From: Patescibacteria group bacterium
Lineage (GTDB): Bacteria > Patescibacteriota > Minisyncoccia > 2-02-FULL-40-12 > IGHO2-01-FULL-4-A
Reading direction: 5' to 3'
Length of the DNA: 64,000 nucleotides
NCBI GenBank assembly: GCA_038064915.1
Contig: JBBTSB010000004.1
Coordinates: 24,874 to 88,873 of the forward strand
Part shown: piece by piece, positions 2,986 to 43,811 of the stretch
Layout of the letters: each line of letters opens with the position of its first letter
Position numbering within the stretch: the first letter of the stretch is position 1
The notes under the pieces: generated by a model
The model's database searches: none
What the model was told of the DNA's origin: nothing
The model's input: only the letters and a program-made list of their open reading frames with translations
Program-made: the position numbers and the translations under genes

Positions 2986-3818
2986 TTTCTTTTTTGCAAT
3001 CTGATGAGTGGGCGCAATTTCAAAGATCCCTTGGGCGGAAGGTTTTTGACGTCGAAGGCACAAAGGTGATTCGGCATGATTTGACGTTTAAAAAAAATTA
3101 CCTATATGTGCCGTACCCGGATACGGTGCCGAATTTGCTTCCATTGGCGGAGCAAGAAAAAAGCATTTTCATAAAAGCAGAGCCCATGCACGATGAAGTT
3201 GCTCAAGCGCTCGTGCATCAAGGCTATCAAAAATCATCCAAAAACGTCCAGCCACATCGGACCGTCGTACTTGATCTCACAAATAGCGAAGATGCATTGT
3301 TGAGCGCAATGCACCACAAGACGAGGTATAACATCCGCGTTGCGGAGCGGGAACATGTGGTCGTGGAGCAAAGCACGGATACTAATATTTTTTTGAGCTT
3401 AATGAAAAAGACTACCGCACGCGATAAATTTCACACACATTCCGAATGGTACTATCATCGCCTCATGGCATCTCGCGGATTGGATACAAAACTCTGGATC
3501 GCATGGCACGATGGCAAACCCATCGCCTCCGCTATCACGCTGACCTACGGCGATACGGCATATTATCTCCATGGTGCGTCAGACTACGAATATCGCTCTC
3601 TTATGGGCCCGTATCTTTTGCATTGGAAGATACTTTTAAACTTTAAACACTTAAACTTTAAACTTTATGATTTCTGGGGAATTGATGCAAAAAAATGGCC
3701 CGGCGTGACCCGATTCAAACTTGGCTGGGGAGGGCGGACAATCGAATATCCGGGGGCGTTTGATTTTGCTATTTCAAAACCTTGGTATTTTGCGTATACT
3801 TTATACCATGGATTATAG
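2982..3818 (+). CDS. FemAB-family peptidoglycan interpeptide aminoacyltransferase, copy 1
   Basis: 278 aa; FLQSDEWAQFQ N-terminus and C-terminal YYLHGASDYEYRSLMGPYLLHW...YDFWGI typical of FemX/FemAB; ATGA overlap with ruvA; contains the TTTAAAC repeat element. Confidence 0.75.
   Translation: MISFLQSDEWAQFQRSLGRKVFDVEGTKVIRHDLTFKKNYLYVPYPDTVPNLLPLAEQEKSIFIKAEPMHDEVAQALVHQGYQKSSKNVQPHRTVVLDLTNSEDALLSAMHHKTRYNIRVAEREHVVVEQSTDTNIFLSLMKKTTARDKFHTHSEWYYHRLMASRGLDTKLWIAWHDGKPIASAITLTYGDTAYYLHGASDYEYRSLMGPYLLHWKILLNFKHLNFKLYDFWGIDAKKWPGVTRFKLGWGGRTIEYPGAFDFAISKPWYFAYTLYHGL
3634..3667. repeat. TTTAAAC-heptamer repeat element, in frame in femAB copy 1
   Basis: TTTTAAACTTTAAACACTTAAACTTTAAACTTTA encodes LLNFKHLNFKL. 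Confidence 0.65.
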
Positions 3819-4077
3819 AGATATCATTCGCAAAAACCCCGGACTAATCTGGTACAGCCGAAATTATGACGGCTTTGAGGAGTCAACCGTGGTAGAGGCA
3901 GTTTTAAATTATGGTGATTGGGATGAATTTAAAGCATTAAAAGAATCTCTTAGTGTGGAGAGAGTTGCAGAGATTTTTCGAGAGAACGCCTTTCGCGAGC
4001 GCACCAACTACCGCGACGATGTTCGCCAATACTTCACCCTATATTTTGACAAACATGCACCGCGAGATACTCACTAA
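3808..4077 (+). CDS. small hypothetical protein (90 aa), possible partner of the downstream AbiEii-like gene
   Basis: ATG at 3808 overlaps the femAB stop by 11 nt; the ORF ends 23 nt inside the downstream nucleotidyltransferase gene; no recognisable domain. Confidence 0.35.
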   Translation: MDYRDIIRKNPGLIWYSRNYDGFEESTVVEAVLNYGDWDEFKALKESLSVERVAEIFRENAFRERTNYRDDVRQYFTLYFDKHAPRDTH

Positions 4078-4666
4078 AGAACAAATCGAACTACTTCCCG
4101 TGATATCGAAATTCAAAGGAGATTTTGGGCTCGTCGGAGGTACTGCCGCAGCCTTGCACATAGGACATCGGCGCTCAATTGACTTCGATATGTTTTCATT
4201 AAAGTCATTTGTCAATGAGGATATACGAAAAATTTTGACAAGCGCATTTCCCATTGAACAAGAATTAGTAGATCGAGATGGCGAATATACCATCAAGATA
4301 AATAGTGTAAAAGCCACATTTTATCAGTATCGCATTCCCATTGATTTTCCGGATGTTTTTGAAAACTCGATGCGAGTAGCTGATCTCGTGACCATTGCCG
4401 CCATGAAGATCCATGCGTTAGGGAGTCGCGCCAAGTGGAAGGATTACGTTGATCTCTACTTCATTTTAAAAAACAAACATACCATAGATGAGCTGGATGC
4501 AAAGGCGCATGAGATTTTGCATGGTGAATTCAATGCACGTCTTTTTCGACAGCGACTTGCGCTATTTTTCGATATTCGCTACGACGAACAGGTGGAGTTT
4601 ATGCCTGGATTTGAAGTCTCATCTCGCGAAATTAAAGAGTATTTACGAGAAGTGAGCTTAAGCTAA
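4055..4666 (+). CDS. AbiEii/DUF1814-like nucleotidyltransferase (putative type IV toxin-antitoxin or abortive-infection toxin)
   Basis: GLVGGTAAALHIGHRRSIDFDMF matches the GGTAL...R.S.DxD signature of AbiEii nucleotidyltransferases; start chosen at the in-frame ATG 4055 (the ORF track extends to 3953). Confidence 0.6.
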   Translation: MHREILTKEQIELLPVISKFKGDFGLVGGTAAALHIGHRRSIDFDMFSLKSFVNEDIRKILTSAFPIEQELVDRDGEYTIKINSVKATFYQYRIPIDFPDVFENSMRVADLVTIAAMKIHALGSRAKWKDYVDLYFILKNKHTIDELDAKAHEILHGEFNARLFRQRLALFFDIRYDEQVEFMPGFEVSSREIKEYLREVSLS

Positions 4667-4671
4667 ATAGC

Positions 4672-4698
4672 AAAAACCCTCATAAAATAAGGGTTTTT
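4672..4698. terminator. hairpin with flanking A and T runs after the AbiEii-like gene (bidirectional)
   Basis: AAAAACCCTcataaaataAGGGTTTTT. Confidence 0.4.
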
Positions 4699-4704
4699 AG
4701 CGTA

Positions 4705-4734
4705 TTGACAAATAGCACTCTACTGTGCTATACT
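4705..4734 (+). promoter_or_regulatory. sigma70-like promoter for the GC-rich islet A
   Basis: TTGACA, 18-nt spacer, TATACT. Confidence 0.45.
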
Positions 4735-4794
4735 ATTATCATACTGAAATCAGGGTCCGGTTGAGGAGCTAGACCTTTGAAAACTCGATTTTTC

Positions 4795-4834
4795 GGCACG
4801 TGTGGCCACCCAGGCCATACGTGCCCTTTTGTTT
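4795..4834 (+). promoter_or_regulatory. leader hairpin plus U tract (attenuator-like intrinsic terminator) in the 5' UTR of the small ORF at 4882
   Basis: GGCACGT...ACGTGCC 7-bp stem enclosing a tGGCC/GGCCa sub-stem, followed by CTTTTGTTT. Confidence 0.35.
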
Positions 4835-4881
4835 GCTCGCGACAATCCCGTCGTGGTGCAAACCGATGAGGAGGAATATAA

Positions 4882-5097
4882 ATGAAGAAGCTGGAAAAAA
4901 TCGCTAACCTCATGATAGGGGCCGGAGCTGGCATCATGATGATGACCAGTGGCATCCTCGCCCTGGGGGAGCCGACCGGCTATCTGAACATCCAGATTCT
5001 CGTCTGGATCTCCCGCGGCACATGGGGACTCATGCTCCTTGGCGGAGTTCTCATGGCAGCAGCGAAAGACCGGGAGCACGCCCACCGCAAGGCGTAG
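4882..5097 (+). CDS. small Gly/Ala-rich membrane protein (71 aa) in GC-rich islet A
   Basis: canonical SD GAGGAGG 8 nt upstream; two predicted TM segments; GC and GC3 far above genome average. Confidence 0.5.
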   Translation: MKKLEKIANLMIGAGAGIMMMTSGILALGEPTGYLNIQILVWISRGTWGLMLLGGVLMAAAKDREHAHRKA

Positions 5098-5227
5098 CTC
5101 CGGGATCGTACAAAGATGGAGGAGCGCCGACGGAACTCCGTCGTGATTTGCTCCTCCCTCCGAACTGGAGCGTGAGTGGATGTTCTTTTACCATATCTCC
5201 TCAACCCCTCATGCTCCAATTCGGGGA

Positions 5228-5260
5228 TGCCCGGTCGCTTGACTGGGCTTTTTTTATTTT
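5228..5260 (+). terminator. rho-independent terminator closing islet A
   Basis: GCCCGG tcgcttga CTGGGC followed by TTTTTTTATTTTT. Confidence 0.5.
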
Positions 5261-5284
5261 TAAAAGCGAGTATGCTTAGAGGTA

Positions 5285-6445
5285 ATGAGAAACCTCTACC
5301 ATTGGTGTCTTGCGGTACTTGCGTCGATCATCTATGGATTTCCCTCCCATGACGTAAAGGTCATTGGGGTTACGGGAACCAAGGGAAAGTCTACGACGGC
5401 TTTTATGATCGCAAAAATCTTTGCCGATCAGGGCCTTCCCATCGCCATGATCAGCTCCCTGGGCTATCGGATCAAGGATCAGGAATGGCCAAATCTTCTC
5501 AAGATGACCATGCCGGGACGCTTTCGACTACAGCAGTTTATAGCAAAAGCCCGACGGGCGAAATGCCAGTATGTCGTTGTAGAAGTCACTTCCGAAGGAA
5601 TCGCCCAGCATCGTCTCGTTGGCGTTCGTGTTGACTGTGCCGTGTTTACCAACTTACACAAGGAACACATTGAAAGCCACGGTGGTTTTGAACAATACAA
5701 AGAAGCCAAGAAAGTGCTATTTCACAAAACCAAGAACATCCACGTGATGAACGCTGAAAATCAGCATTCGGAGGAATTTTTGGCATTGCCCGCAATGAAA
5801 AAAATCAGTTTTGGTATGGAGCATGGCGATTTGAAACAGAATACCCTGGAGCTCCGTCTCAACCTAGCAGGTGAGTTCAATATCTACAACGCCCTCGCCG
5901 CAATGGGTGTTGCACATGCCTACGGACTGGATTCTTTGAAAGCGAAAGCGAGTGTTGAATCCATCGATCGCGTACCCGGACGAATGGAGTTTGTTGAACT
6001 AGGCCAACCATTTGAGGTTGTCGTTGATTACGCGCATACACCGGAATCGCTGGAGGGTGTTTACCAAACCCTCAAGCCAAAGAACGGCAAGCTGATTGCT
6101 GTTCTTGGAGCTGCAGGTGGGGGACGTGATACATGGAAAAGGCCAGTTTTTGGTGAGCTGGCTGATCGCTATTGTGATGAAATCGTTCTCACCAATGAAG
6201 ATCCGTACGAAGAGGATCCGGAAAAAATACTCAATGAAATCGCTTCCGGAATTCGTACGTCAAAGGCAAAACGCATCATTGATCGCCGCGAAGCGATAGC
6301 CACTGCCATTGCGGATGCACAAGTGGGTGATGTTGTGGTGATCACCGGGAAGGGTTCTGAAACCTCCATGGCGGTGGCGGGAGGCAAGCATATTCCCTGG
6401 TCTGATCTTGGGGTTGCATCGGAGGTACTTCACATGCGATCATAG
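5285..6445 (+). CDS. Mur ligase family protein (MurE-like, short form)
   Basis: 386 aa; GVTGTKGKSTT P-loop, Mur ligase central and C-terminal domains; lacks a long N-terminal domain. Confidence 0.65.
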   Translation: MRNLYHWCLAVLASIIYGFPSHDVKVIGVTGTKGKSTTAFMIAKIFADQGLPIAMISSLGYRIKDQEWPNLLKMTMPGRFRLQQFIAKARRAKCQYVVVEVTSEGIAQHRLVGVRVDCAVFTNLHKEHIESHGGFEQYKEAKKVLFHKTKNIHVMNAENQHSEEFLALPAMKKISFGMEHGDLKQNTLELRLNLAGEFNIYNALAAMGVAHAYGLDSLKAKASVESIDRVPGRMEFVELGQPFEVVVDYAHTPESLEGVYQTLKPKNGKLIAVLGAAGGGRDTWKRPVFGELADRYCDEIVLTNEDPYEEDPEKILNEIASGIRTSKAKRIIDRREAIATAIADAQVGDVVVITGKGSETSMAVAGGKHIPWSDLGVASEVLHMRS

Positions 6446-6448
6446 GGT

Positions 6449-6793
6449 ATGAGATGGTTTTTTATTTTTGTTGTTCTGATTTCGTTTACGACAGCGGTTT
6501 TTTTCTTTGGTAAGCCATCGCCGAATGAGCCGGCGCACATCGGACTGCCGGAATCACGTTCCTATGTCATCACCTATCGTGATGGGGTATTCAGCCCTAC
6601 GAATTTGAGGATCCGATCCCGCGATTCGATCACCTTTAGAAATGATTCACTCCGTGTGATTGCCATTCCCGAATTCAATTCTGGCGAAATAAGCCCGAGA
6701 GGTGATTATACGAGAGTTTTTTCTACGCCGGGGGTGTATTCATATACAAATCAATTTCAACCCAAGGAAGATGGTATGATAATAGTTCAATGA
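6449..6793 (+). CDS. hypothetical secreted/membrane-anchored protein, possibly cupredoxin-like fold
   Basis: N-terminal hydrophobic segment; beta-rich C-terminus; no metal ligands recognised. Confidence 0.35.
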   Translation: MRWFFIFVVLISFTTAVFFFGKPSPNEPAHIGLPESRSYVITYRDGVFSPTNLRIRSRDSITFRNDSLRVIAIPEFNSGEISPRGDYTRVFSTPGVYSYTNQFQPKEDGMIIVQ

Positions 6794-6794
6794 C

Positions 6795-8111
6795 ATGAAA
6801 CTTACCTTTTATGGTGGAGCAGGCGATGTGACAGGAGCAAACTACCTTCTCGAAGAAGGAAATCTTCAGCTAATCGTGGATTGCGGCCTTCACCAGGGAA
6901 GCAAGTATGCCGAGGATCTCAACTACACGCCGTTTGCATACGAACCCAAGCTTATTGAATTTGTTTTTATCACCCACAGTCACATTGACCATATCGGGAG
7001 ACTTCCAAAGCTCTACCGTGATGGATTTCGTGGGACGGTGTATGCGACGGATGCAACTGCGGATCTCATGGCGGTGGCATTGCCAGATAATATGTCTCAT
7101 ATCCTTCATGAGGCTGAACGTGATGGGCATGAGCCGTTGTTTGAACAAAGAGATCTCGATGGAATAATGAAGTTGGTGAGGGGGGTGGACTATGGTGAGA
7201 AGATTCCACTACGTGAAGGTGTTACGGCTACTCTTCACGATGCTGGGCATGTTCTGGGATCGGCAATTGTGGAAATTCAATGGCACGATAAAAAGATTTT
7301 CTTTTCCGGAGATTTGGGAAATCCTCCTACGCCACTTTTGCGGCCTACCGAATTCGTCCACGATGCAAATTATGTTGTTATGGAGTCTGCGTACGGTGAT
7401 CGTGTACATGAGGCTCGTGAAGAACGTCGTGAAAAACTTGCTCAAATAATTCAGGAAACTATTGCTCGCAAGGGGACATTGATGATTCCCTCGTTTGCTT
7501 TGGAGCGCACCCAGGATTTGTTGTTTGAGCTCAATGAGTTGCGTCAGCAGAATAAAATTTCCTCCGTTCCCATATTTCTCGACAGCCCTTTGGCGATAAA
7601 ACTGACAGGTGTGTATGAAAAATACTTCGGAAAAAATTCTTTTGATTTTCCCGGGATTGAATTTACCGCCACACCCGATGAGTCTAAACGCATAAATGAT
7701 GTTCCCGCCCCCAAAATCATTATCGCCGGTTCGGGTATGAGTCAGGGGGGAAGAATTTTGCATCATGAACGGCGGTATCTTTCTGATCCCGTCAGTACCA
7801 TTCTTTTTGTAGGTTACCAGGTAGATGGAAGTTTAGGCAGAAGAATACAACGGGGTGATCAGATGGTGACGATTTTTGGTGAAACCGTTGCTGTTCGCTG
7901 TCATGTAGAAACCGTGAGCGGGTATTCTGCTCATGCCGACCAGCCTGCACTCATGCACTGGGTGAAAGTCGCAAATTCAAATGGAAGCTTAAAAAAAGTA
8001 TTTGTTGTGCAAGGCGAGGAACATACAGCCAAAACCCTGGCAAATCTCATCCGTGAAGAGCTCGATGTGAGTGCTCTTGCCCCTCAGCCCGGAGAGGTCG
8101 TAGAACTTTAG
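6795..8111 (+). CDS. MBL-fold beta-CASP family ribonuclease/hydrolase
   Basis: 438 aa; HSHIDH metallo-beta-lactamase motif, beta-CASP region and C-terminal RNA-specificity-like domain. Confidence 0.7.
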   Translation: MKLTFYGGAGDVTGANYLLEEGNLQLIVDCGLHQGSKYAEDLNYTPFAYEPKLIEFVFITHSHIDHIGRLPKLYRDGFRGTVYATDATADLMAVALPDNMSHILHEAERDGHEPLFEQRDLDGIMKLVRGVDYGEKIPLREGVTATLHDAGHVLGSAIVEIQWHDKKIFFSGDLGNPPTPLLRPTEFVHDANYVVMESAYGDRVHEAREERREKLAQIIQETIARKGTLMIPSFALERTQDLLFELNELRQQNKISSVPIFLDSPLAIKLTGVYEKYFGKNSFDFPGIEFTATPDESKRINDVPAPKIIIAGSGMSQGGRILHHERRYLSDPVSTILFVGYQVDGSLGRRIQRGDQMVTIFGETVAVRCHVETVSGYSAHADQPALMHWVKVANSNGSLKKVFVVQGEEHTAKTLANLIREELDVSALAPQPGEVVEL

Positions 8112-25196: not shown

Positions 25197-25251
25197 AAAG
25201 CCAAAACCCCGTCGTACAGACCGGGGCGGCCGCGCGCGGGGTTGGGTGGTA

Positions 25252-25455
25252 CTAGAAATGCGAGTAGGGATCTAGACGTCGCATGTCACTCTTGAGCTCA
25301 GAAAATCGACCCGGATAGAGTCGGTCAAGCTCTTGGATGACCTCCAGGACTTCGCCGAAATCCGGACCATCGGCAAGCCACGCTCGAATCCTACTTTCAA
25401 TTATGCGCTTCGAGGCGCTTCTGTCCTGGGAGAGTTTTCGGAGCTGTTCTTTCAT
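25252..25455 (-). CDS. small hypothetical protein (67 aa) in GC-rich islet B/C
   Basis: SD GAGAGGAG 4 nt upstream; palindrome GCTACGatatataaCGTAGC in its promoter region; terminator hairpin CCCCG...CGGGG plus T run at its 3' end. Confidence 0.45.
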   Translation of the reverse strand: MKEQLRKLSQDRSASKRIIESRIRAWLADGPDFGEVLEVIQELDRLYPGRFSELKSDMRRLDPYSHF

Positions 25456-25718
25456 ATCTCTCCTCTCGCTTCCTGACGGGTGGAAGCTACGATATATAAC
25501 GTAGCAACTGTCAATAAGTGACAGTGAGCCTCCCGCTCAAAAAACGAAGCCCCGTTCAACACTCTGTCGAACGGGGGTTCGACTAGCGCGAGCGGGGCAG
25601 GGCGGGGGAGCAATCTTCATTGAAGTCCTCCAATGGTTTTATAAATAGCATGAAAAATATGTACTGTCAAGCATAAAAAATGACGCCGCCCCGCTATGGT
25701 CGACTGTGGTTAAGTCGT

Positions 25719-25964
25719 TCAGCGGGGCGTGGAACCTTCCTCCTTCAGAAGCTCTAGATGTCCGATTACTTGCTGGTCTTTCCACCAGCGTGCCGCCTTT
25801 CCGATCACTTCTCCCTCTAGTACCCACCACTGGGAGTTGATGAAGGGAAACGGACATCGAATTCGATGCAGCGTGTAGATGCCTGGCTGTAACAGATGTG
25901 TCCGCGCATCGGAGAGATCGGAGGCATCGATGAGCTCCAGGGGGTACTTCGTTCTGACCTTCAT
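25719..25964 (-). CDS. small hypothetical protein (81 aa) in GC-rich islet B/C
   Basis: SD AAGGAGG 5 nt upstream of ATG; followed (minus strand) by a 9-bp stem plus T6 terminator; the ORF track extends it to 26141 antisense of serS, which is rejected. Confidence 0.45.
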   Translation of the reverse strand: MKVRTKYPLELIDASDLSDARTHLLQPGIYTLHRIRCPFPFINSQWWVLEGEVIGKAARWWKDQQVIGHLELLKEEGSTPR

Positions 25965-26018
25965 GGGACCCTCCTTGGGATTCCAAGAATACGATATTTG
26001 TGCTAAATTTACAAGATC

Positions 26019-36181: not shown

Positions 36182-36340
36182 ATGGAGTTCGAGATCGTCA
36201 ATGAGTTCATCCGCAAGGTTCAACAGCTTATCCTGGACCGAGAAGCAGGTCTCGAGACGCGCGATGCGGTACTTGATGCACTCGAAGAGCTTCTTGAAGA
36301 CGCCAAGCGTTCTCTCCATAAGCTACGCGTTGCTGAATAG
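36182..36340 (+). CDS. small acidic helical protein (52 aa)
   Basis: SD AGGAGAGGAG 6 nt upstream of ATG; the ORF track extends it upstream to 36110. Confidence 0.35.
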   Translation: MEFEIVNEFIRKVQQLILDREAGLETRDAVLDALEELLEDAKRSLHKLRVAE

Positions 36341-36385: not shown

Positions 36386-36413
36386 TTGACATCCAGGAGG
36401 TAGACGATATAAT
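36386..36413 (+). promoter_or_regulatory. promoter for the coiled-coil gene pair
   Basis: TTGACA, 16 nt, TATAAT; the ATG at 36423 is about 9 nt downstream (near leaderless). Confidence 0.5.
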
Positions 36414-36422
36414 TGAGAAATC

Positions 36423-36698
36423 ATGGCAAAGCAAACAATTCTAACAAAAGAGGATTTTGAAAGCATTTTGGATAAAAAGCTCAAGAGTCACACAAAGGAT
36501 ATTAAAGTTCATGTGACTAAAGAAATCAAAAGAGAGGTTGGTGATCTAGCCGCAATGACTGCGCGTGGATTTCGATCTGTTGATGAGCGTTTTGACCAAG
36601 TTGACCGAAAGATTGATAAATTGACGACTATATCCGAAAATCACGAGAAACGCATCAAACGCGTGGAAAAGGCGGTTGGCATTCCTGAAATTGTATGA
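36423..36698 (+). CDS. small coiled-coil protein, paralog family member 2
   Basis: 91 aa; shares LxxHTKxI...GF...ER...KL with members 1 and 3. Confidence 0.45.
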   Translation: MAKQTILTKEDFESILDKKLKSHTKDIKVHVTKEIKREVGDLAAMTARGFRSVDERFDQVDRKIDKLTTISENHEKRIKRVEKAVGIPEIV

Positions 36699-36979
36699 AA
36701 AACAAAGTGAGTAAAGAACTCCAGGAGACGGCAAATCAAGTACAGCAAGAAATCGCGGATAGATTTGTTAAGATTTTTGCACAAAAAATCGAGGAAATGG
36801 TTGAGGAATTTAGCGGGCATTTGGACAAGCACATGGATGAGCTCGAGGATTTAATTGAAGAAGGTTTTATGAGCCTCCATGAGCATTTGCAAACTTCCGA
36901 GCGTGTGAAGCAAATCGAGAAGCGGCTGAAGAAACTCGAAAAGCTTGACGAAAAAATCGAAAAGCGCTATATTACCTAA
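36695..36979 (+). CDS. small coiled-coil protein, paralog family member 3
   Basis: 94 aa; overlaps member 2 by 4 nt; shares the family motif. Confidence 0.45.
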   Translation: MKNKVSKELQETANQVQQEIADRFVKIFAQKIEEMVEEFSGHLDKHMDELEDLIEEGFMSLHEHLQTSERVKQIEKRLKKLEKLDEKIEKRYIT

Positions 36980-37097: not shown

Positions 37098-37173
37098 TTG
37101 GCCAGATTGATCAGAACTATTGATACATCAAGCCAGCACGGAGCCCCCGATGCTGGAGAAGGAGAGATAAACT

Positions 37174-37389
37174 ATGTCGTATGGCATACTGACCCACGTT
37201 CCGTGTAACGAGCGGAACTTCGATACTCATGGCCGCGAGCTTCGCTGCGTGTCGAAGGCGGGACACCTCGATGACCAGATTGGACATCGGTTCGAGTACC
37301 TGAACGAGGCCGAGAAGCCTCAGCCCGAGCCTCCTGAGCCACCACGTGGATGGGCACAGATGGGCCCGACGATGGGCTGGCTCACGTAA
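37174..37389 (+). CDS. small hypothetical protein (71 aa) in GC-rich islet D
   Basis: SD AAGGAG 10 nt upstream; very high GC3; Pro/Glu-rich C-terminus. Confidence 0.4.
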   Translation: MSYGILTHVPCNERNFDTHGRELRCVSKAGHLDDQIGHRFEYLNEAEKPQPEPPEPPRGWAQMGPTMGWLT

Positions 37390-37424
37390 TTCCGTTCCAT
37401 TGAGCGGTCCAACCGCTCAACTGC

Positions 37425-37462
37425 GCCGCGGAGGGGAGACCTTCCGCGGCTGTTTTATTTTT
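37425..37462 (+). terminator. rho-independent terminator after islet D ORF
   Basis: GCCGCGGA ggggagacc TCCGCGGC followed by TGTTTTATTTTT. Confidence 0.55.
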
Positions 37463-37467
37463 CAAGT

Positions 37468-37494
37468 AAAAAAAACCGCTCATGGGCGGAAAAT
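37468..37494 (-). terminator. minus-strand intrinsic terminator
   Basis: minus strand reads CCGCCCATGAGCGG followed by TTTTTTTT. Confidence 0.45.
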
Positions 37495-37549
37495 AATATC
37501 TAGCAGGGGCGGGGGTAGGACAAAACACTGTACTACCCCGCGCCCCCTA

Positions 37550-37711
37550 TCAGGTACTGGTTGCCCGGGCTTCTGCGCCCGGTTTTCCCTCCGTTGTGTC
37601 GGGGTTGTCCTTTGGAGGCGGAGTGTACCGCCTCTTCACCTCAGCGTGACGGGCCTTCTTGCGAAGATCCGCCTCCCCGAGGTCATCCATGCCTTCTCCG
37701 TAAACGGGCAT
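37550..37711 (-). CDS. small basic/disordered protein (53 aa), convergent to the islet D ORF
   Basis: SD AGGGGGA 5 nt upstream; perfect TATAAT about 60 nt upstream on the minus strand; followed by long hairpins and a U8 terminator; below the 60-aa ORF-track cutoff. Confidence 0.3.
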   Translation of the reverse strand: MPVYGEGMDDLGEADLRKKARHAEVKRRYTPPPKDNPDTTEGKPGAEARATST

Positions 37712-37813
37712 GTTTCCCCCTACATTGTCGAGCTACTCGCGCGATAGCCCGAGATTGGCGAGTTTCTACGCGATAATCCATTATAGAACTGACATTATCA
37801 ACAAGTAAAGCGT

Positions 37814-40198: not shown

Positions 40199-40972
40199 GT
40201 GGTTATGATGGTTTTCAGATATCTTAAAAAAATGCCTCACTCGATAAAAATTGCATTTTTTGTATTTCTTCTCTTAATTGCAACGGGAACATATTTTTTA
40301 TTTCACTCGCCTCAAGGCATCCCTGTCACTGAGATAACCATTGACGACATTGAATATCAAACGGCGGAATATCCCAATGGAGCAACTGGATACGCAATTT
40401 CATGGCCGCAATGTGGAGGGGAGTATCCTCGAATGCCTTATGATTTTGGCATTATTGGAGTTACCAATGGGCATTCACTAAGTTATAATCCGTGTTTTAA
40501 ATCCGAGTTGATATGGGCGCAAAAAGCAAAATATCTTCCATCATTTTATCTGAACTTGGATTTTCCCTCTCGTATGCATGATACTCCGCCGCGTTCGTAT
40601 GGATATCGTACGGCCCAAGACGCATATGAATTTGCGAAATCTCAGGGTGTCGAAGGTGGTACTTGGTGGCTTGATGTACAAATCATGAGCCGGTGGTCAT
40701 CGGATAAAGCCACCAATGCTCAAATTGTTCTCGGTGCAATTGAATACTTTAACGAGCAAAATGTTTTTATTGGTCTTTCTACGACGCCCTACCAGTGGCA
40801 TGAGGTGGTAGGAGATTTACAAACAAACCTACCCAATTGGATTCCCGGGCGAGCCAACAAGGAAGCGGCGGCAACATACTGTACCGAAGGAATAAGTTAC
40901 TCCGGAGGCCCTGTGCTTCAGCTTGCATATATCGAAAACGGTTTTGAGGCAGTTTACTCATGCGGGCAGTAG
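40199..40972 (+). CDS. secreted GH25/DUF1906-like putative peptidoglycan hydrolase
   Basis: N-terminal TM/signal; GYAISWPQCGG ... FGIIGVTNG ... pattern resembling the GH25 lysozyme TIM barrel. Confidence 0.45.
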   Translation: MVMMVFRYLKKMPHSIKIAFFVFLLLIATGTYFLFHSPQGIPVTEITIDDIEYQTAEYPNGATGYAISWPQCGGEYPRMPYDFGIIGVTNGHSLSYNPCFKSELIWAQKAKYLPSFYLNLDFPSRMHDTPPRSYGYRTAQDAYEFAKSQGVEGGTWWLDVQIMSRWSSDKATNAQIVLGAIEYFNEQNVFIGLSTTPYQWHEVVGDLQTNLPNWIPGRANKEAAATYCTEGISYSGGPVLQLAYIENGFEAVYSCGQ

Positions 40973-41073
40973 CAGAAGAAATGCGGGGCAGGTTTGCTGC
41001 GTTTAGATAGACTTTTCTCATATTTTTTGCGATACTGACCCCGTCCAGGCTAGAGCTTGGCGGAGGAGGGAAT

Positions 41074-41250
41074 ATGTCACCGGTGCGAGCAATTATGGGG
41101 GTGGCGGGTGCGCTCGTAGCATGCTTCAGTTTTCTTGGCATGATGAGCGGGATCGCTCCCGGATTCCTTTTTTACCTAGTCGCTTTTATCGTCGGCGGCG
41201 CATTGGTAGTGTACGCACTGCCGTCGCATTCCTACCCACCGAGACGATGA
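41074..41250 (+). CDS. small Gly/Ala-rich two-TM protein (58 aa) in GC-rich islet E/F
   Basis: SD GGAGGAGGG just upstream of ATG; hydrophobic. Confidence 0.4.
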   Translation: MSPVRAIMGVAGALVACFSFLGMMSGIAPGFLFYLVAFIVGGALVVYALPSHSYPPRR

Positions 41251-41393
41251 TACCAAACTGGACCCGGTGCTGGGCCGCGACAGCCGGAATGATTGCGGCC
41301 GGCTTCGGCGGGCACATCATCATCGCCACACTTTGCGGAATAGCGGCCCTGATATTCTGGGTTTGTTATCTCTGCGAGGACGAAGTTCGTTAA
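41247..41393 (+). CDS. small TM protein (48 aa), translationally coupled to the previous ORF
   Basis: ATGA start/stop overlap; hydrophobic with Cys pairs. Confidence 0.35.
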   Translation: MIPNWTRCWAATAGMIAAGFGGHIIIATLCGIAALIFWVCYLCEDEVR

Positions 41394-41457
41394 ACCGGGG
41401 TCGTCATGCCAAACAGGTGGACTACCCCGGGAGCTGTACTTGTGTTAGTATTTTAAT

Positions 41458-42390: not shown

Positions 42391-43559
42391 TGTTCGAGAT
42401 TCTCAAAAAAGATTCTAAATCAAACGCCCGTCTGGGCGTTTTGACGACACCGCATGGTGAGATCCACACGCCGGCGTTTTTGCCGATCGGTACCAAGGGT
42501 GCGGTGAAGGCGCTTACCAACGAAGAGCTCGTCGGCTTGGGCGCGGAAATCATCCTCGCAAACACCTACCACCTCATGGTGTCACCGGGAAGTGAAATCA
42601 TCCGCAAGGCAGGAGGGCTGCATAAATTTATGAATTGGGATCGGCCCATTTTTACGGACTCGGGTGGATATCAGGTGTTTAGTTTGGGTGAGAAAATCTC
42701 CTCCCGACCTCCCCTTAATGGTAAGGGGAGGAGCGAAGGGGATAGTGAAGTAGGAGCATTTAATAAAAAAATCAGCGAAGAAGGCGTGACGTTTCAATCC
42801 GGAATTGATGGGAGAGAGTTTACGCTTACTCCGGAGCATTCGGTGAAGGTACAGCAAGATCTCGGCAGTGATATCACTGTGGTGCTTGATGAATTTACAG
42901 GAGAAATTACCAATTATTTACGTGTAAAAGAAACCGTGGAGAGAACAACACGCTGGGCAAAGCGTTCCCGTGAGGCATTGAGAGGTGAAACCTCTCAATT
43001 GCAGTATGCGGTGGTGCAAGGGGCTATCTTTGAAGATTTGCGGAAACAGTCGGCGTTGGAATTGCGCGAAATGGATTTTGATGGGTATTGTATTGGCGGC
43101 GTGGCTGTGGGAGGAGAAACGAGTGAAGAGCAATACAAAGCAGTTGAGTACTCTCTTCCGCATTTGCCCGAAGACAAGCCTCGACATCTATTGGGCGTTG
43201 GTACTCCGGAGCAAATCATCGAAGCAGTAAAGCGCGGGATTGATACGTTTGATTGCGTCATTCCCACGAGAGAAGCTCGTCACGGGAAAATTTACTTAGG
43301 GGTGAAACCCCTAAACTCCGAATTGAGGGGTTTCACCCCTCAAACTTTGGACATCAGCAAAACAATTTTTAAAGAAGATTTTACTGCGCTCGATTCCACG
43401 TGTGACTGCGAAGCGTGTACGAAGTATACACGAGCCTATCTACATCATTTATTTAAATCCAGCGAAATATTGGCAATGCGACTACTCACGATGCATAATG
43501 TGAGATTTTATTTGCGACTTATGGAAAAGATACGGGAGGCGGTCGCCGCGTCGGGTTAG
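42390..43559 (+). CDS. tgt: queuine tRNA-ribosyltransferase
   Basis: GAVKALT, DSGGYQVFSL and zinc site CDCEAC...H; carries two extra in-frame segments relative to E. coli Tgt. Confidence 0.9.
   Translation: MFEILKKDSKSNARLGVLTTPHGEIHTPAFLPIGTKGAVKALTNEELVGLGAEIILANTYHLMVSPGSEIIRKAGGLHKFMNWDRPIFTDSGGYQVFSLGEKISSRPPLNGKGRSEGDSEVGAFNKKISEEGVTFQSGIDGREFTLTPEHSVKVQQDLGSDITVVLDEFTGEITNYLRVKETVERTTRWAKRSREALRGETSQLQYAVVQGAIFEDLRKQSALELREMDFDGYCIGGVAVGGETSEEQYKAVEYSLPHLPEDKPRHLLGVGTPEQIIEAVKRGIDTFDCVIPTREARHGKIYLGVKPLNSELRGFTPQTLDISKTIFKEDFTALDSTCDCEACTKYTRAYLHHLFKSSEILAMRLLTMHNVRFYLRLMEKIREAVAASG
42708..42731. repeat. GC-rich perfect palindrome inside tgt (in-frame insertion 1)
   Basis: CCTCCCCTTA atgg TAAGGGGAGG; lies within an extra ~22-codon segment (SSRPPLNGKGRSEGDSEVGAFNK). 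Confidence 0.6.
43298..43340. repeat. GC-rich perfect palindrome inside tgt (in-frame insertion 2)
   Basis: AGGGGTGAAACCCCT, 13-nt loop, AGGGGTTTCACCCCT; perfect 15-bp arms; encodes about 12 extra residues. Confidence 0.65.
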
Positions 43560-43583
43560 GACGGGCGACCGCTCTCGAGGGAG

Positions 43584-43766
43584 CTAGCGACGGGTGACGC
43601 TCATCAGACGAGGGAGGGGGATTTCGATTTCTCCTACGCCTGCAACGTCGACACGAACGCGGACCTGGGCGTTGCCGTTGTCCTTGTACCCTTTGTAGAC
43701 CACGGCGAGGGGTATCGTGACGACATCCCCCTCTTTTGCCTCCTGTAAGAACTGGTCGAGTATCAT
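43584..43766 (-). CDS. small beta-rich protein (60 aa), weakly CsrA-like, in GC-rich islet G
   Basis: SD AAGGAGGTG 3 nt upstream of ATG; GDVVTIPL...NAQVRVRVDV loosely resembles CsrA GDEVTVTVL...GNQVRIGV; the ORF track extends it antisense into the exonuclease gene, which is rejected. Confidence 0.4.
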   Translation of the reverse strand: MILDQFLQEAKEGDVVTIPLAVVYKGYKDNGNAQVRVRVDVAGVGEIEIPLPRLMSVTRR

Positions 43767-43811
43767 GCGCACCTCCTTGGACTTTATAGCTATATCATAT
43801 ATCATGGATGC

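Follow-up and report, generated by a model that had tools for sequence, protein, structure and literature searches.

A GC-rich, Shine–Dalgarno-led small-peptide unit of likely horizontal origin in a Shine–Dalgarno-poor Patescibacteria chromosome

The DNA analyzed here is a 64,000-nucleotide (nt) stretch from a Patescibacteria group bacterium (hereafter, the window), in which a short intergenic segment rich in guanine and cytosine (GC), islet A, contains a promoter, a structured 5′ leader, an open reading frame (ORF) for a 71-amino-acid (aa) peptide (A1) preceded by a canonical Shine–Dalgarno (SD) sequence, and an intrinsic terminator. On balance, islet A is likely to be a small, self-contained and horizontally acquired transcription unit, i.e., a moron-like ORFan cassette, residing in a cellular chromosome. 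Its site, between femAB and a Mur ligase gene, is probably a variable intergenic hotspot, with a separately acquired AbiE-type toxin–antitoxin (TA) pair beside it. An earlier note, made from the letters of this DNA, had listed five such islets (A, 4741–5284; B, 25197–26018; C, 37100–37800; D, 40975–41457; E, 43560–43811). Islets B–E and a further cassette at 36182–36340 are unrelated cassettes with the same architecture (Table 1).

Composition and translation signals of the islets

The GC content of the window is 46.4%, and 46.0% outside the islets, where 500-nt windows show a standard deviation of 2.9% and a maximum of 54.6%; islet A has 54.2%, with a core of 57%. The earlier estimate of 58–62% for the islets was thus right in direction and too high in value, since the five islets have 52.6–56.5% over their whole lengths and only their 400-nt cores reach 57–59%. 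The GC content at the third codon position (GC3), described there as very high throughout, is so in A1 (0.76), E1 (0.70), and C1 (0.69), moderate in B2, C2, and D2 (0.63–0.65), and not significantly raised in B1 and D1 (0.56–0.58). The values of A1 for the three codon positions (0.58/0.42/0.76, compared with a native GC3 of ~0.47; P = 3.5e-7) follow a coding-type pattern, and all islet ORFs have GC1 > GC2 with raised GC3.

Taking the energy of the duplex formed with a generic anti-SD sequence as SD strength, the 51 native long ORFs of the window average –1.5 kcal/mol, weaker than the background at random positions of the window (–2.65 kcal/mol), and a single one of them reaches –6 kcal/mol, in agreement with the previous claim that native genes almost lack SD sequences. 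The islet ORFs A1, B1, B2, C1, C2, D1, and E1 have energies of –9.1 to –12.3 kcal/mol, so that an SD is borne by 7/7 first-cistron islet ORFs versus 1/51 native genes. Such ORFs (SD-led, ATG start, at least 45 aa) would be expected in the islets at 0.33 ± 0.58 according to dinucleotide shuffles, none of 300 shuffles reaching the seven observed, and a scan of the whole window located every intergenic SD-led ORF in an islet, with the cassette at 36182–36340 as the sole exception. For the native genes, a TANNNT hexamer ends 4–12 nt (mostly 6 nt) before the start codon in 15 of the 27 operon-first genes, compared with 10% in the background. This supports the leaderless mRNAs predicted earlier for many of them. 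A survey of the literature on SD or leaderless usage in Patescibacteria and the candidate phyla radiation (CPR) found nothing describing such a pattern.

Anatomy and RNA structure of islet A

The order of elements proposed for islet A in the earlier note is borne out in each part. The promoter matches the sigma-70 consensus at 11 of 12 positions, and transcription would start at about 4741–4743, downstream of a hairpin that closes the AbiEii unit and forms the left edge of the islet. The ensuing leader of ~140 nt is indeed structured, with a minimum free energy (MFE) of –58.8 kcal/mol versus –41.7 ± 4.0 kcal/mol in shuffled sequences (z, –4.3; –4.1 to –4.3 over the comparisons with shuffles; minus strand, –2.5), and its terminator-like hairpin is kept in both the MFE and the centroid folds. 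After the A1 ORF, two further hairpins precede the terminator, a hairpin followed by a T7 run. The predicted transcript (4744–5262) folds with –238 kcal/mol versus –181.6 ± 7.4 kcal/mol in shuffles (z, –7.6; opposite strand, –4.2). This signal is concentrated in the untranslated regions (UTRs): the 3′ UTR (5098–5262) gives –74.2 kcal/mol versus –47.2 ± 3.9 kcal/mol (z, –6.9; –7.8 with an independent shuffle set), and the coding sequence (CDS) gives a z of –2.6. The same measure is about –5.2 to –5.6 for the B2, C1, and C2 cassettes (–5.6 for C1 and C2) and –2.7 for D, with –0.2 ± 1.06 for 18 native control stretches of 400 nt. Since the cassette mRNAs would be leadered and unusually structured in a genome whose mRNAs are leaderless, they have a functional reason to need an SD.

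Several tracts in islet A resemble an SD (4763, 4868, and 5119) or an anti-SD (5152 and 5197), and 13 nt of the 5′ part (4759–4771) are complementary to the 3′ part (5194–5206), which may be due to chance. In the MFE fold, the SD of A1 is weakly paired with the U-tracts on either side of the leader hairpin; the centroid fold lacks this pairing. A candidate leader ORF starting with TTG extends across the terminator-like hairpin and ends in a TGA overlapping the A1 SD. Its GC3 of 0.42 provides no coding signature, and its status as a real gene is speculative.

Very strong fold z-scores that favor the plus strand raise the question of whether islet A is a structured non-coding RNA, its GC-richness being a consequence of folding and its 71-codon ORF fortuitous; in genomes of lower GC content, structured RNAs are known to stand out as GC-rich islands between genes. 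We regard this as very unlikely. The ORF fills the space between the leader and the 3′ UTR, with an ATG and an SD at optimal distance (7 nt), a coding-type codon-position pattern and high GC3, and the architecture recurs in seven unrelated ORFs versus 0.33 expected. The structure lies mainly in the UTRs rather than in the CDS, and no Rfam family was matched: the gathering-score search of the whole window gave 0 matches, and the best sub-threshold scores in an E-value search of islet A were 17–22 bits compared with cut-offs of 49–97.

From these elements, a course of expression can be proposed for the unit. The near-consensus sigma-70 promoter would produce, from a start near 4742, an unusually folded mRNA of ~520 nt. 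The leader hairpin with its U-rich tail would terminate part of the transcripts, leaving a fraction that reaches the A1 ORF, and translation of the TTG leader ORF could couple to both read-through and A1 initiation. This arrangement is similar to pyrBI-type attenuators, which also have a leader terminator hairpin spanned by a short ORF with an SD-like sequence and a stop overlapping the main SD; it differs from them in that the leader ORF starts with TTG and lacks a coding signature, and the likeness is purely structural. The leadered and structured read-through mRNA would then be initiated through the strong SD, GAGGAGG with 7-nt spacing, possibly a signal retained from the donor.

Properties of peptide A1

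A1 is rich in Gly, Ala, Leu, and Met, and consists of a basic N-terminus (MKKLEK), two hydrophobic Gly/Ala helices with small-xxx-small motifs, and a charged C-terminus (KDREHAHRKA). Its AlphaFold2 (AF2) model is a helical hairpin (H2–27 and H33–70) with a predicted local distance difference test (pLDDT) score of 77, consistent with the Gly/Ala-rich peptide with two transmembrane (TM) helices described before. It would insert into the cytoplasmic membrane as a 71-residue hairpin of N-in/C-in topology with small-xxx-small faces, and most plausibly is a membrane-active small protein, which may be toxin- or holin-like or else modulate a membrane complex. In NCBI, the peptide is present as 'MAG: hypothetical protein AAB420_01240 [Patescibacteria group bacterium]', whose annotated start is Met11 (61 aa), passing over the SD-supported Met1.

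A1 is an ORFan. An indexed search of a clustered collection of 5.8 billion proteins returned only self-matches, and an exhaustive phmmer search of 1.84 billion representative proteins found no homologue; its matches to a eukaryote-like tandem-repeat protein and an ABC-ATPase fragment were rejected as compositional. All small islet proteins gave nothing above noise against Pfam, PHROGs, PADLOC, and NCBIfam. In fold searches, only generic helical hairpins (E > 0.4) resembled the A1 model. The phage or plasmid source considered in the earlier note is unsupported: searches of 50,697 phage records and 72,556 plasmid records with tblastn and blastn gave no match, and neither did PHROGs or a scan of IMG/VR with A1.

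The same note had likened A1 to type I toxins and holins. The likeness holds in size and topology, from which such an activity is possible, and the reading in which islet A is a type I TA-like or holin-like module, with A1 as a membrane-permeabilizing toxin whose translation is checked by mRNA structure (masking of the SD, pairing of the 5′ and 3′ parts, and termination in the leader) and perhaps by an RNA antitoxin, is a tentative one. It is consistent with a small hydrophobic two-helix peptide with charged termini, encoded by an exceptionally structured mRNA with long UTRs, SD- and anti-SD-like tracts, 13-nt 5′/3′ complementarity, and weak pairing of the SD in the MFE fold, next to another TA module. 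Type I toxins (Hok, TisB, Fst, and AapA) and the type V toxin GhoT are likewise small hydrophobic membrane peptides of intergenic chromosomal loci, and type I mRNAs are also long and structured, with strong SDs having potential intramolecular anti-SD partners. These toxins are, however, usually shorter than 60 aa with one helix, whereas A1 has 71 aa and two TM helices, no sequence or Rfam match to them, and no detected antisense RNA gene. A sequence scan, which weak promoters could escape, found no minus-strand promoter–terminator pair within 4700–5300 and no divergent one in the islet or next to it; a single promoter-like site on the minus strand (4711 to 4684) is directed away from the ORF. 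Class II holins and pinholins such as S21 of phage 21 have ~65–95 aa, two TM helices, and a charged C-terminus. A1 resembles them in length, in its Gly/Ala/Ser-rich helix 1 and short charged tail, and in its predicted N-in/C-in topology, but lacks a lysis cassette, an M-K-M dual start, a match to holin families in PHROGs or Pfam, and a prophage setting. The neighbors of islet A are AbiEii and the Mur ligase, with no endolysin or spanin genes near it. The fold-search results and the loss of the SD pairing in the centroid fold also speak against this module.

Insertion site and comparison with related genomes

The closest genomes found belong to Paceibacteria-type CPR lineages, in which the Mur ligase protein is at most 59% identical and Tgt 72% identical. 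Between femAB and the Mur ligase gene, the window contains an insertion of 1.47 kb, made up of the AbiE pair (left half) and islet A, whereas four relatives (L046, L002, L004, and L008) have a gap of ~100 nt or less and lack both. The AbiE pair (Pfam AbiEii, E = 2e-11; DUF6922, weak; PADLOC AbiEii) has a GC content of ~0.42 versus 0.54 for islet A, which suggests two separate acquisitions at one hotspot. Insertions found at the same site in two other relatives (L003 and L007) were rejected as cassettes, being a conserved Trp-repressor-like gene.

Islets D and E are absent from a syntenic contig (L064) whose proteins are 72–86% identical, with the order groES–groEL–DUF5671–tgt–exonuclease–helicase. 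In place of a 257-aa ORF and islet D of the window, it has 250 nt, and its next gene begins 3 nt after tgt, where the window has islet E. This contig, of the closest relative, carries an insertion of its own (5095–7950; 2.9 kb, ~60% GC) between PolB-exonuclease-like and UvrD-like helicase genes that are contiguous in the window. The insertion encodes a Peptidase_S46 dipeptidyl-peptidase (Pfam, E = 7e-193) with a signal-peptide-like N-terminus, for which DAP BII/DPP enzymes are the closest solved structures, and which is preceded by a textbook SD (AGAGGAGGTG). Together with the window islets, it indicates that in this clade insertions of foreign composition arrive with a canonical SD, whereas residents lack one. 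The foreign composition and foreign translation signals proposed for the accessory insertions are thus supported by synteny, GC3, and SD contrast, and the presence/absence comparison favors recent acquisition of the window cassettes, as does their composition.

The relatives (L002–L064), whose GC contents range from 31% to 58% among loci with a common gene order, are also SD-poor. At first starts, their SD energies mostly average –1 to –4 kcal/mol, and the fraction of starts at or below –6 kcal/mol is near the background of 13% at most loci (higher in L003, L006, L021, L023, and L063). In the intergenic gaps of these SD-poor relatives, SD-led ATG ORFs of at least 45 aa are enriched (27, versus 5.3 ± 2.4 in shuffles). 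Peptides of native GC with two TM helices, each with an SD, a promoter, and a terminator, are encoded in L002, L003 (two), L007, and L045. Two of these are syntenic next to lon (L003, 6045–6345; L007, 7435–7700) and have a common promoter context (GAACATTTGAC), a short leader, a strong SD, a two-TM peptide of 61–72 aa, and an intrinsic terminator, with sequences diverged beyond recognition. Because SDs stand on a minority of native-GC small genes in the relatives, SD-led cassettes should be translatable, and the ribosomes of the clade very probably use SDs.

These findings bear on the alternative already raised in the earlier note, namely that islet A is not foreign but a fast-evolving member of a native special class, a minority of leadered small genes, many of them for membrane peptides, that use strong SDs as an expression mode of their own. 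The enrichment and the native-GC peptides in the relatives, above all the syntenic pair beside lon, argue for such a class. The window cassettes, on the other hand, have foreign GC3, are absent from syntenic relatives, and show no similarity to each other or to the peptides of the relatives, and several of the 27 ORFs, such as response-regulator receiver domains and acylphosphatase-like ORFs, are internal starts or small genes of an ordinary kind. We therefore consider the native class unlikely as the explanation of islet A; the peptides of the relatives may mean that older cassettes ameliorate in GC yet retain the SD, or that a native class exists.

Horizontal acquisition of islet A, which we prefer, has to be weighed against several points. 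For A1 and B2, neither a donor nor a homologue was found (searches of 5.8 billion and, for A1, 1.84 billion proteins), and the horizontal origin accordingly rests on composition and presence/absence, not on phylogeny. The nearest relatives share only 59–86% protein identity, which makes the polarity of gain and loss inferential and a deletion in the relatives possible. The GC excess of the islets is moderate (+2 to +3.6 standard deviations of 500-nt windows), B1 and D1 are without significant GC3 bias, and the native-GC SD-led two-TM peptides of the relatives imply that an SD may mark a native class, not foreignness. Finally, the duplex energies refer to a generic anti-SD, the 16S anti-SD of this organism lying outside the window.

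Recovery of the islets in independent assemblies

Chimeric joins to the DNA of a higher-GC organism, introduced during assembly or binning, are conceivable in a metagenome-assembled genome, and one Logan contig does end at 4662, the left edge of islet A. Such an artefact is nevertheless extremely improbable and effectively refuted. The identical islet DNA was found in assemblies, from both ENA and Logan, of groundwater samples from Hainich H51: all islets recur at 99.95–100% identity in the metaSPAdes contigs of two ENA analyses and the Logan contigs of three runs of replicate samples, and their recovery in independent assemblies of three samples shows that they are not assembly chimeras; chimeras were one outcome by which the earlier note would have been overturned. 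The islets are also embedded seamlessly between native genes, filling the intergenic spaces exactly and sharing divergent promoters with native genes. Separately, breaks recur at the same positions (4662, 27528, and 37919) in the Logan contigs of different runs, and 4662 is the exact boundary between AbiEii and islet A; strain heterogeneity at cassette edges, or low coverage there, may be the reason.

Comparison with known accessory elements

The islets belong to an already known kind, that of small genomic islets or moron-like ORFan cassettes. Phage morons, in the concept of Hendrix and Juhala, are autonomous promoter–ORF–terminator units inserted between conserved genes, often with deviant GC. 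Islet A shares with them its own promoter and terminator, a single small ORF, precise insertion between conserved neighbors, and deviant composition, and the islets as a whole are, like morons, mutually unrelated and missing from otherwise syntenic relatives. Unlike morons, islet A stands in a cellular chromosome with housekeeping neighbors, with no phage genes nearby and no relatives in PHROGs, phage databases, or IMG/VR. The likeness to genomic islets and ORFan accessory genes at hotspots or defense islands lies in its lineage-specific presence, atypical composition, position beside an AbiE TA pair, and variation of the site among relatives. In comparison with genomic islets, those of the window are only 0.25–0.8 kb long, with one or two ORFs of 48–81 aa, and lack an integrase, a tRNA, a direct repeat, and an inverted terminal repeat; no tRNA or tmRNA gene that could have served as integration anchor is found in the window. 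Integron gene cassettes were rejected, because the islets are dispersed over 40 kb with their own promoters and without an integrase; by eye, the 3′ hairpins also lack the RYYYAAC/GTTRRRY cores of attC sites. With respect to translation, rpsU/bS21 in Bacteroidota is an SD-bearing exception in SD-poor bacteria and similarly represents a few strong SDs in a genome mostly without them. It is, however, a conserved autoregulated ribosomal gene, whereas the SD-led genes of the window are non-conserved ORFans of foreign composition.

As it stands, islet A is a well-documented yet ordinary case of small genomic islets. If the proposed origin is true, streamlined CPR genomes keep acquiring sub-kilobase self-expressing ORFan cassettes at intergenic hotspots, and the mismatch of initiation signals (SD-led versus leaderless) would be a sharp and cheap marker of acquisitions. 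As several islet genes are unannotated or mis-started in public records, the marker could help to uncover small proteins of uncultured symbionts that have stayed hidden, some of them candidate membrane toxins. A broader and rather doubtful extension is that SD-led structured mRNAs for tiny ORFan peptides, often membrane peptides, constitute a separately translated and continually renewed class in leaderless, SD-poor Patescibacteria. Its members would arrive GC-rich by horizontal transfer and undergo amelioration to native GC with SD, promoter, and terminator retained, as the L003 and L007 genes might have done, with possible roles in type-I-toxin-like addiction, defense, or host interaction and with translation gated by mRNA structure or ribosome state.

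Other cassettes in the window

The nine small ORFs show no similarity among themselves, with the rest of the window, or with ~60 related loci. Repeats in common, terminal inverted repeats, and target duplications were likewise not found when the islets were set against one another, the remaining window, and 60 related loci. The terminators attributed to every islet are present as a hairpin plus T-run in A, B, and C, and no canonical one was found for D and E: the scan of these two gave only weak matches with 3–4 G–C pairs inside the D1 coding sequence (41148–41167), and the hairpins downstream of D2 and E1 are without a T-run. Apart from A1, D1, and D2, the encoded proteins look soluble.

Table 1. 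Features of islet A, of its neighbor, and of the other cassettes in the window
Feature	Position	Strand	Remarks
Hairpin AAAAACCCTCAT/ATAAGGGTTTTT	4672..4698	+	inverted repeat I3; closes AbiEii unit, left edge of islet A
Promoter TTGACA (4705-4710)-18-TATACT (4729-4734)	4705..4734	+	TG-extended -10; 11/12 sigma-70 consensus matches
5′ leader, ~140 nt (predicted)	4742..4881	+	hairpin P1, terminator-like hairpin, hairpin P3
Hairpin P1	4750-4780	+	SD-like GAGGAG in and around loop
Candidate leader ORF, 30 codons	4777..4869	+	TTG start, GAGGAG 8 nt upstream; ORF list
Terminator-like hairpin, 13 bp, 9 G–C pairs, 5-nt loop, tail CTTTTGTTTG	stem 4795-4825, to 4835	+	terminator scan
Hairpin P3	4831-4863	+	leader fold
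SD GAGGAGG of A1	4868..4874	+	7 nt upstream of ATG; -11.5 kcal/mol (generic anti-SD)
A1 ORF, 71 aa	4882..5097	+	ATG at 4882; ORF list
3′-UTR hairpin 1, GGAGGAGC paired with GCTCCTCC	5118-5157	+	fold
3′-UTR hairpin 2	5158-5226	+	stem of at least 18 bp; fold
Intrinsic terminator, tail TTTTTTTATT	5229..5258	+	8-bp stem with 6 G–C pairs (5229-5248), then T7 run; terminator scan
AbiE-type type IV TA pair	3811..4666	+	DUF6922-like 89-aa ORF (3811..4077) overlapping AbiEii nucleotidyltransferase ORF (4052..4666)
B1, 67 aa, SD GAGAGGAGAG	25252..25455	-	SD -9.1 kcal/mol; NCBI hypothetical protein AAB420_01355, singleton cluster
B2, 81 aa, SD AAGGAGGG	25719..25964	-	SD -10.6 to -11.7 kcal/mol; terminator 25576-25550
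Cassette not in the earlier list, 52 aa, helical, SD AGGAGAGGAG	36182..36340	+	SD -10.0 kcal/mol; gene call in Logan contig L144
C1, 71 aa, SD GAAGGAGAG	37174..37389	+	GC3 0.69; terminator 37425-37450
C2, 53 aa, SD-like GGGGGA	37550..37711	-	convergent with C1
D1, 58 aa, SD GGAGGAGGG	41074..41250	+	hydrophobic, Gly/Ala-rich
D2, 48 aa	41247..41393	+	coupled to D1 via ATGA overlap; hydrophobic, Gly/Ala-rich
E1, 60 aa, SD AAGGAGGTG	43584..43766	-	GC3 0.70; islet E, 252 nt

B2 is an ORFan by the search of the 5.8-billion-protein collection, which returned only the self-match, and its AF2 model (pLDDT 43) is unusable. For the small proteins other than A1 and B2, curated-family, phage, and plasmid searches were empty. 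Single weak IMG/VR matches of B2 and E1 (32–38% identity over 28–50 aa, with E-values relative to the candidates only) were judged spurious. C1 and C2 are known only as Logan gene calls, with no NCBI entry, and a collection of 15 billion proteins lacks D1 and D2 in their exact form.

The ORF at 36182–36340 directly follows the terminator of a Trp-repressor-like gene and has a GC content of ~0.50–0.52, with no promoter of its own seen. Downstream of it, at 36386–36979, a leaderless ORF pair, which is AT-rich and encodes coiled-coil proteins of 91 and 94 aa, has a perfect sigma-70 promoter (12/12; TTGACA-16-TATAAT) whose end lies 9 nt from its ATG. Next to islet D, the ORF at 40199–40972 on the plus strand (246–257 aa; GC3, 0.38), which is missing from L064 together with the islet, matches neither Pfam nor NCBIfam and adds a second accessory gene, AT-leaning in composition, to that hotspot. 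At the junction of tgt and islet E, the window and an ENA contig (L151) differ by a 1-nt indel in a G-run at 43541, which alters the C-terminus of Tgt (389 versus 398 aa) and makes tgt overlap E1; compared with L064, the last four codons of tgt have been replaced by islet E.

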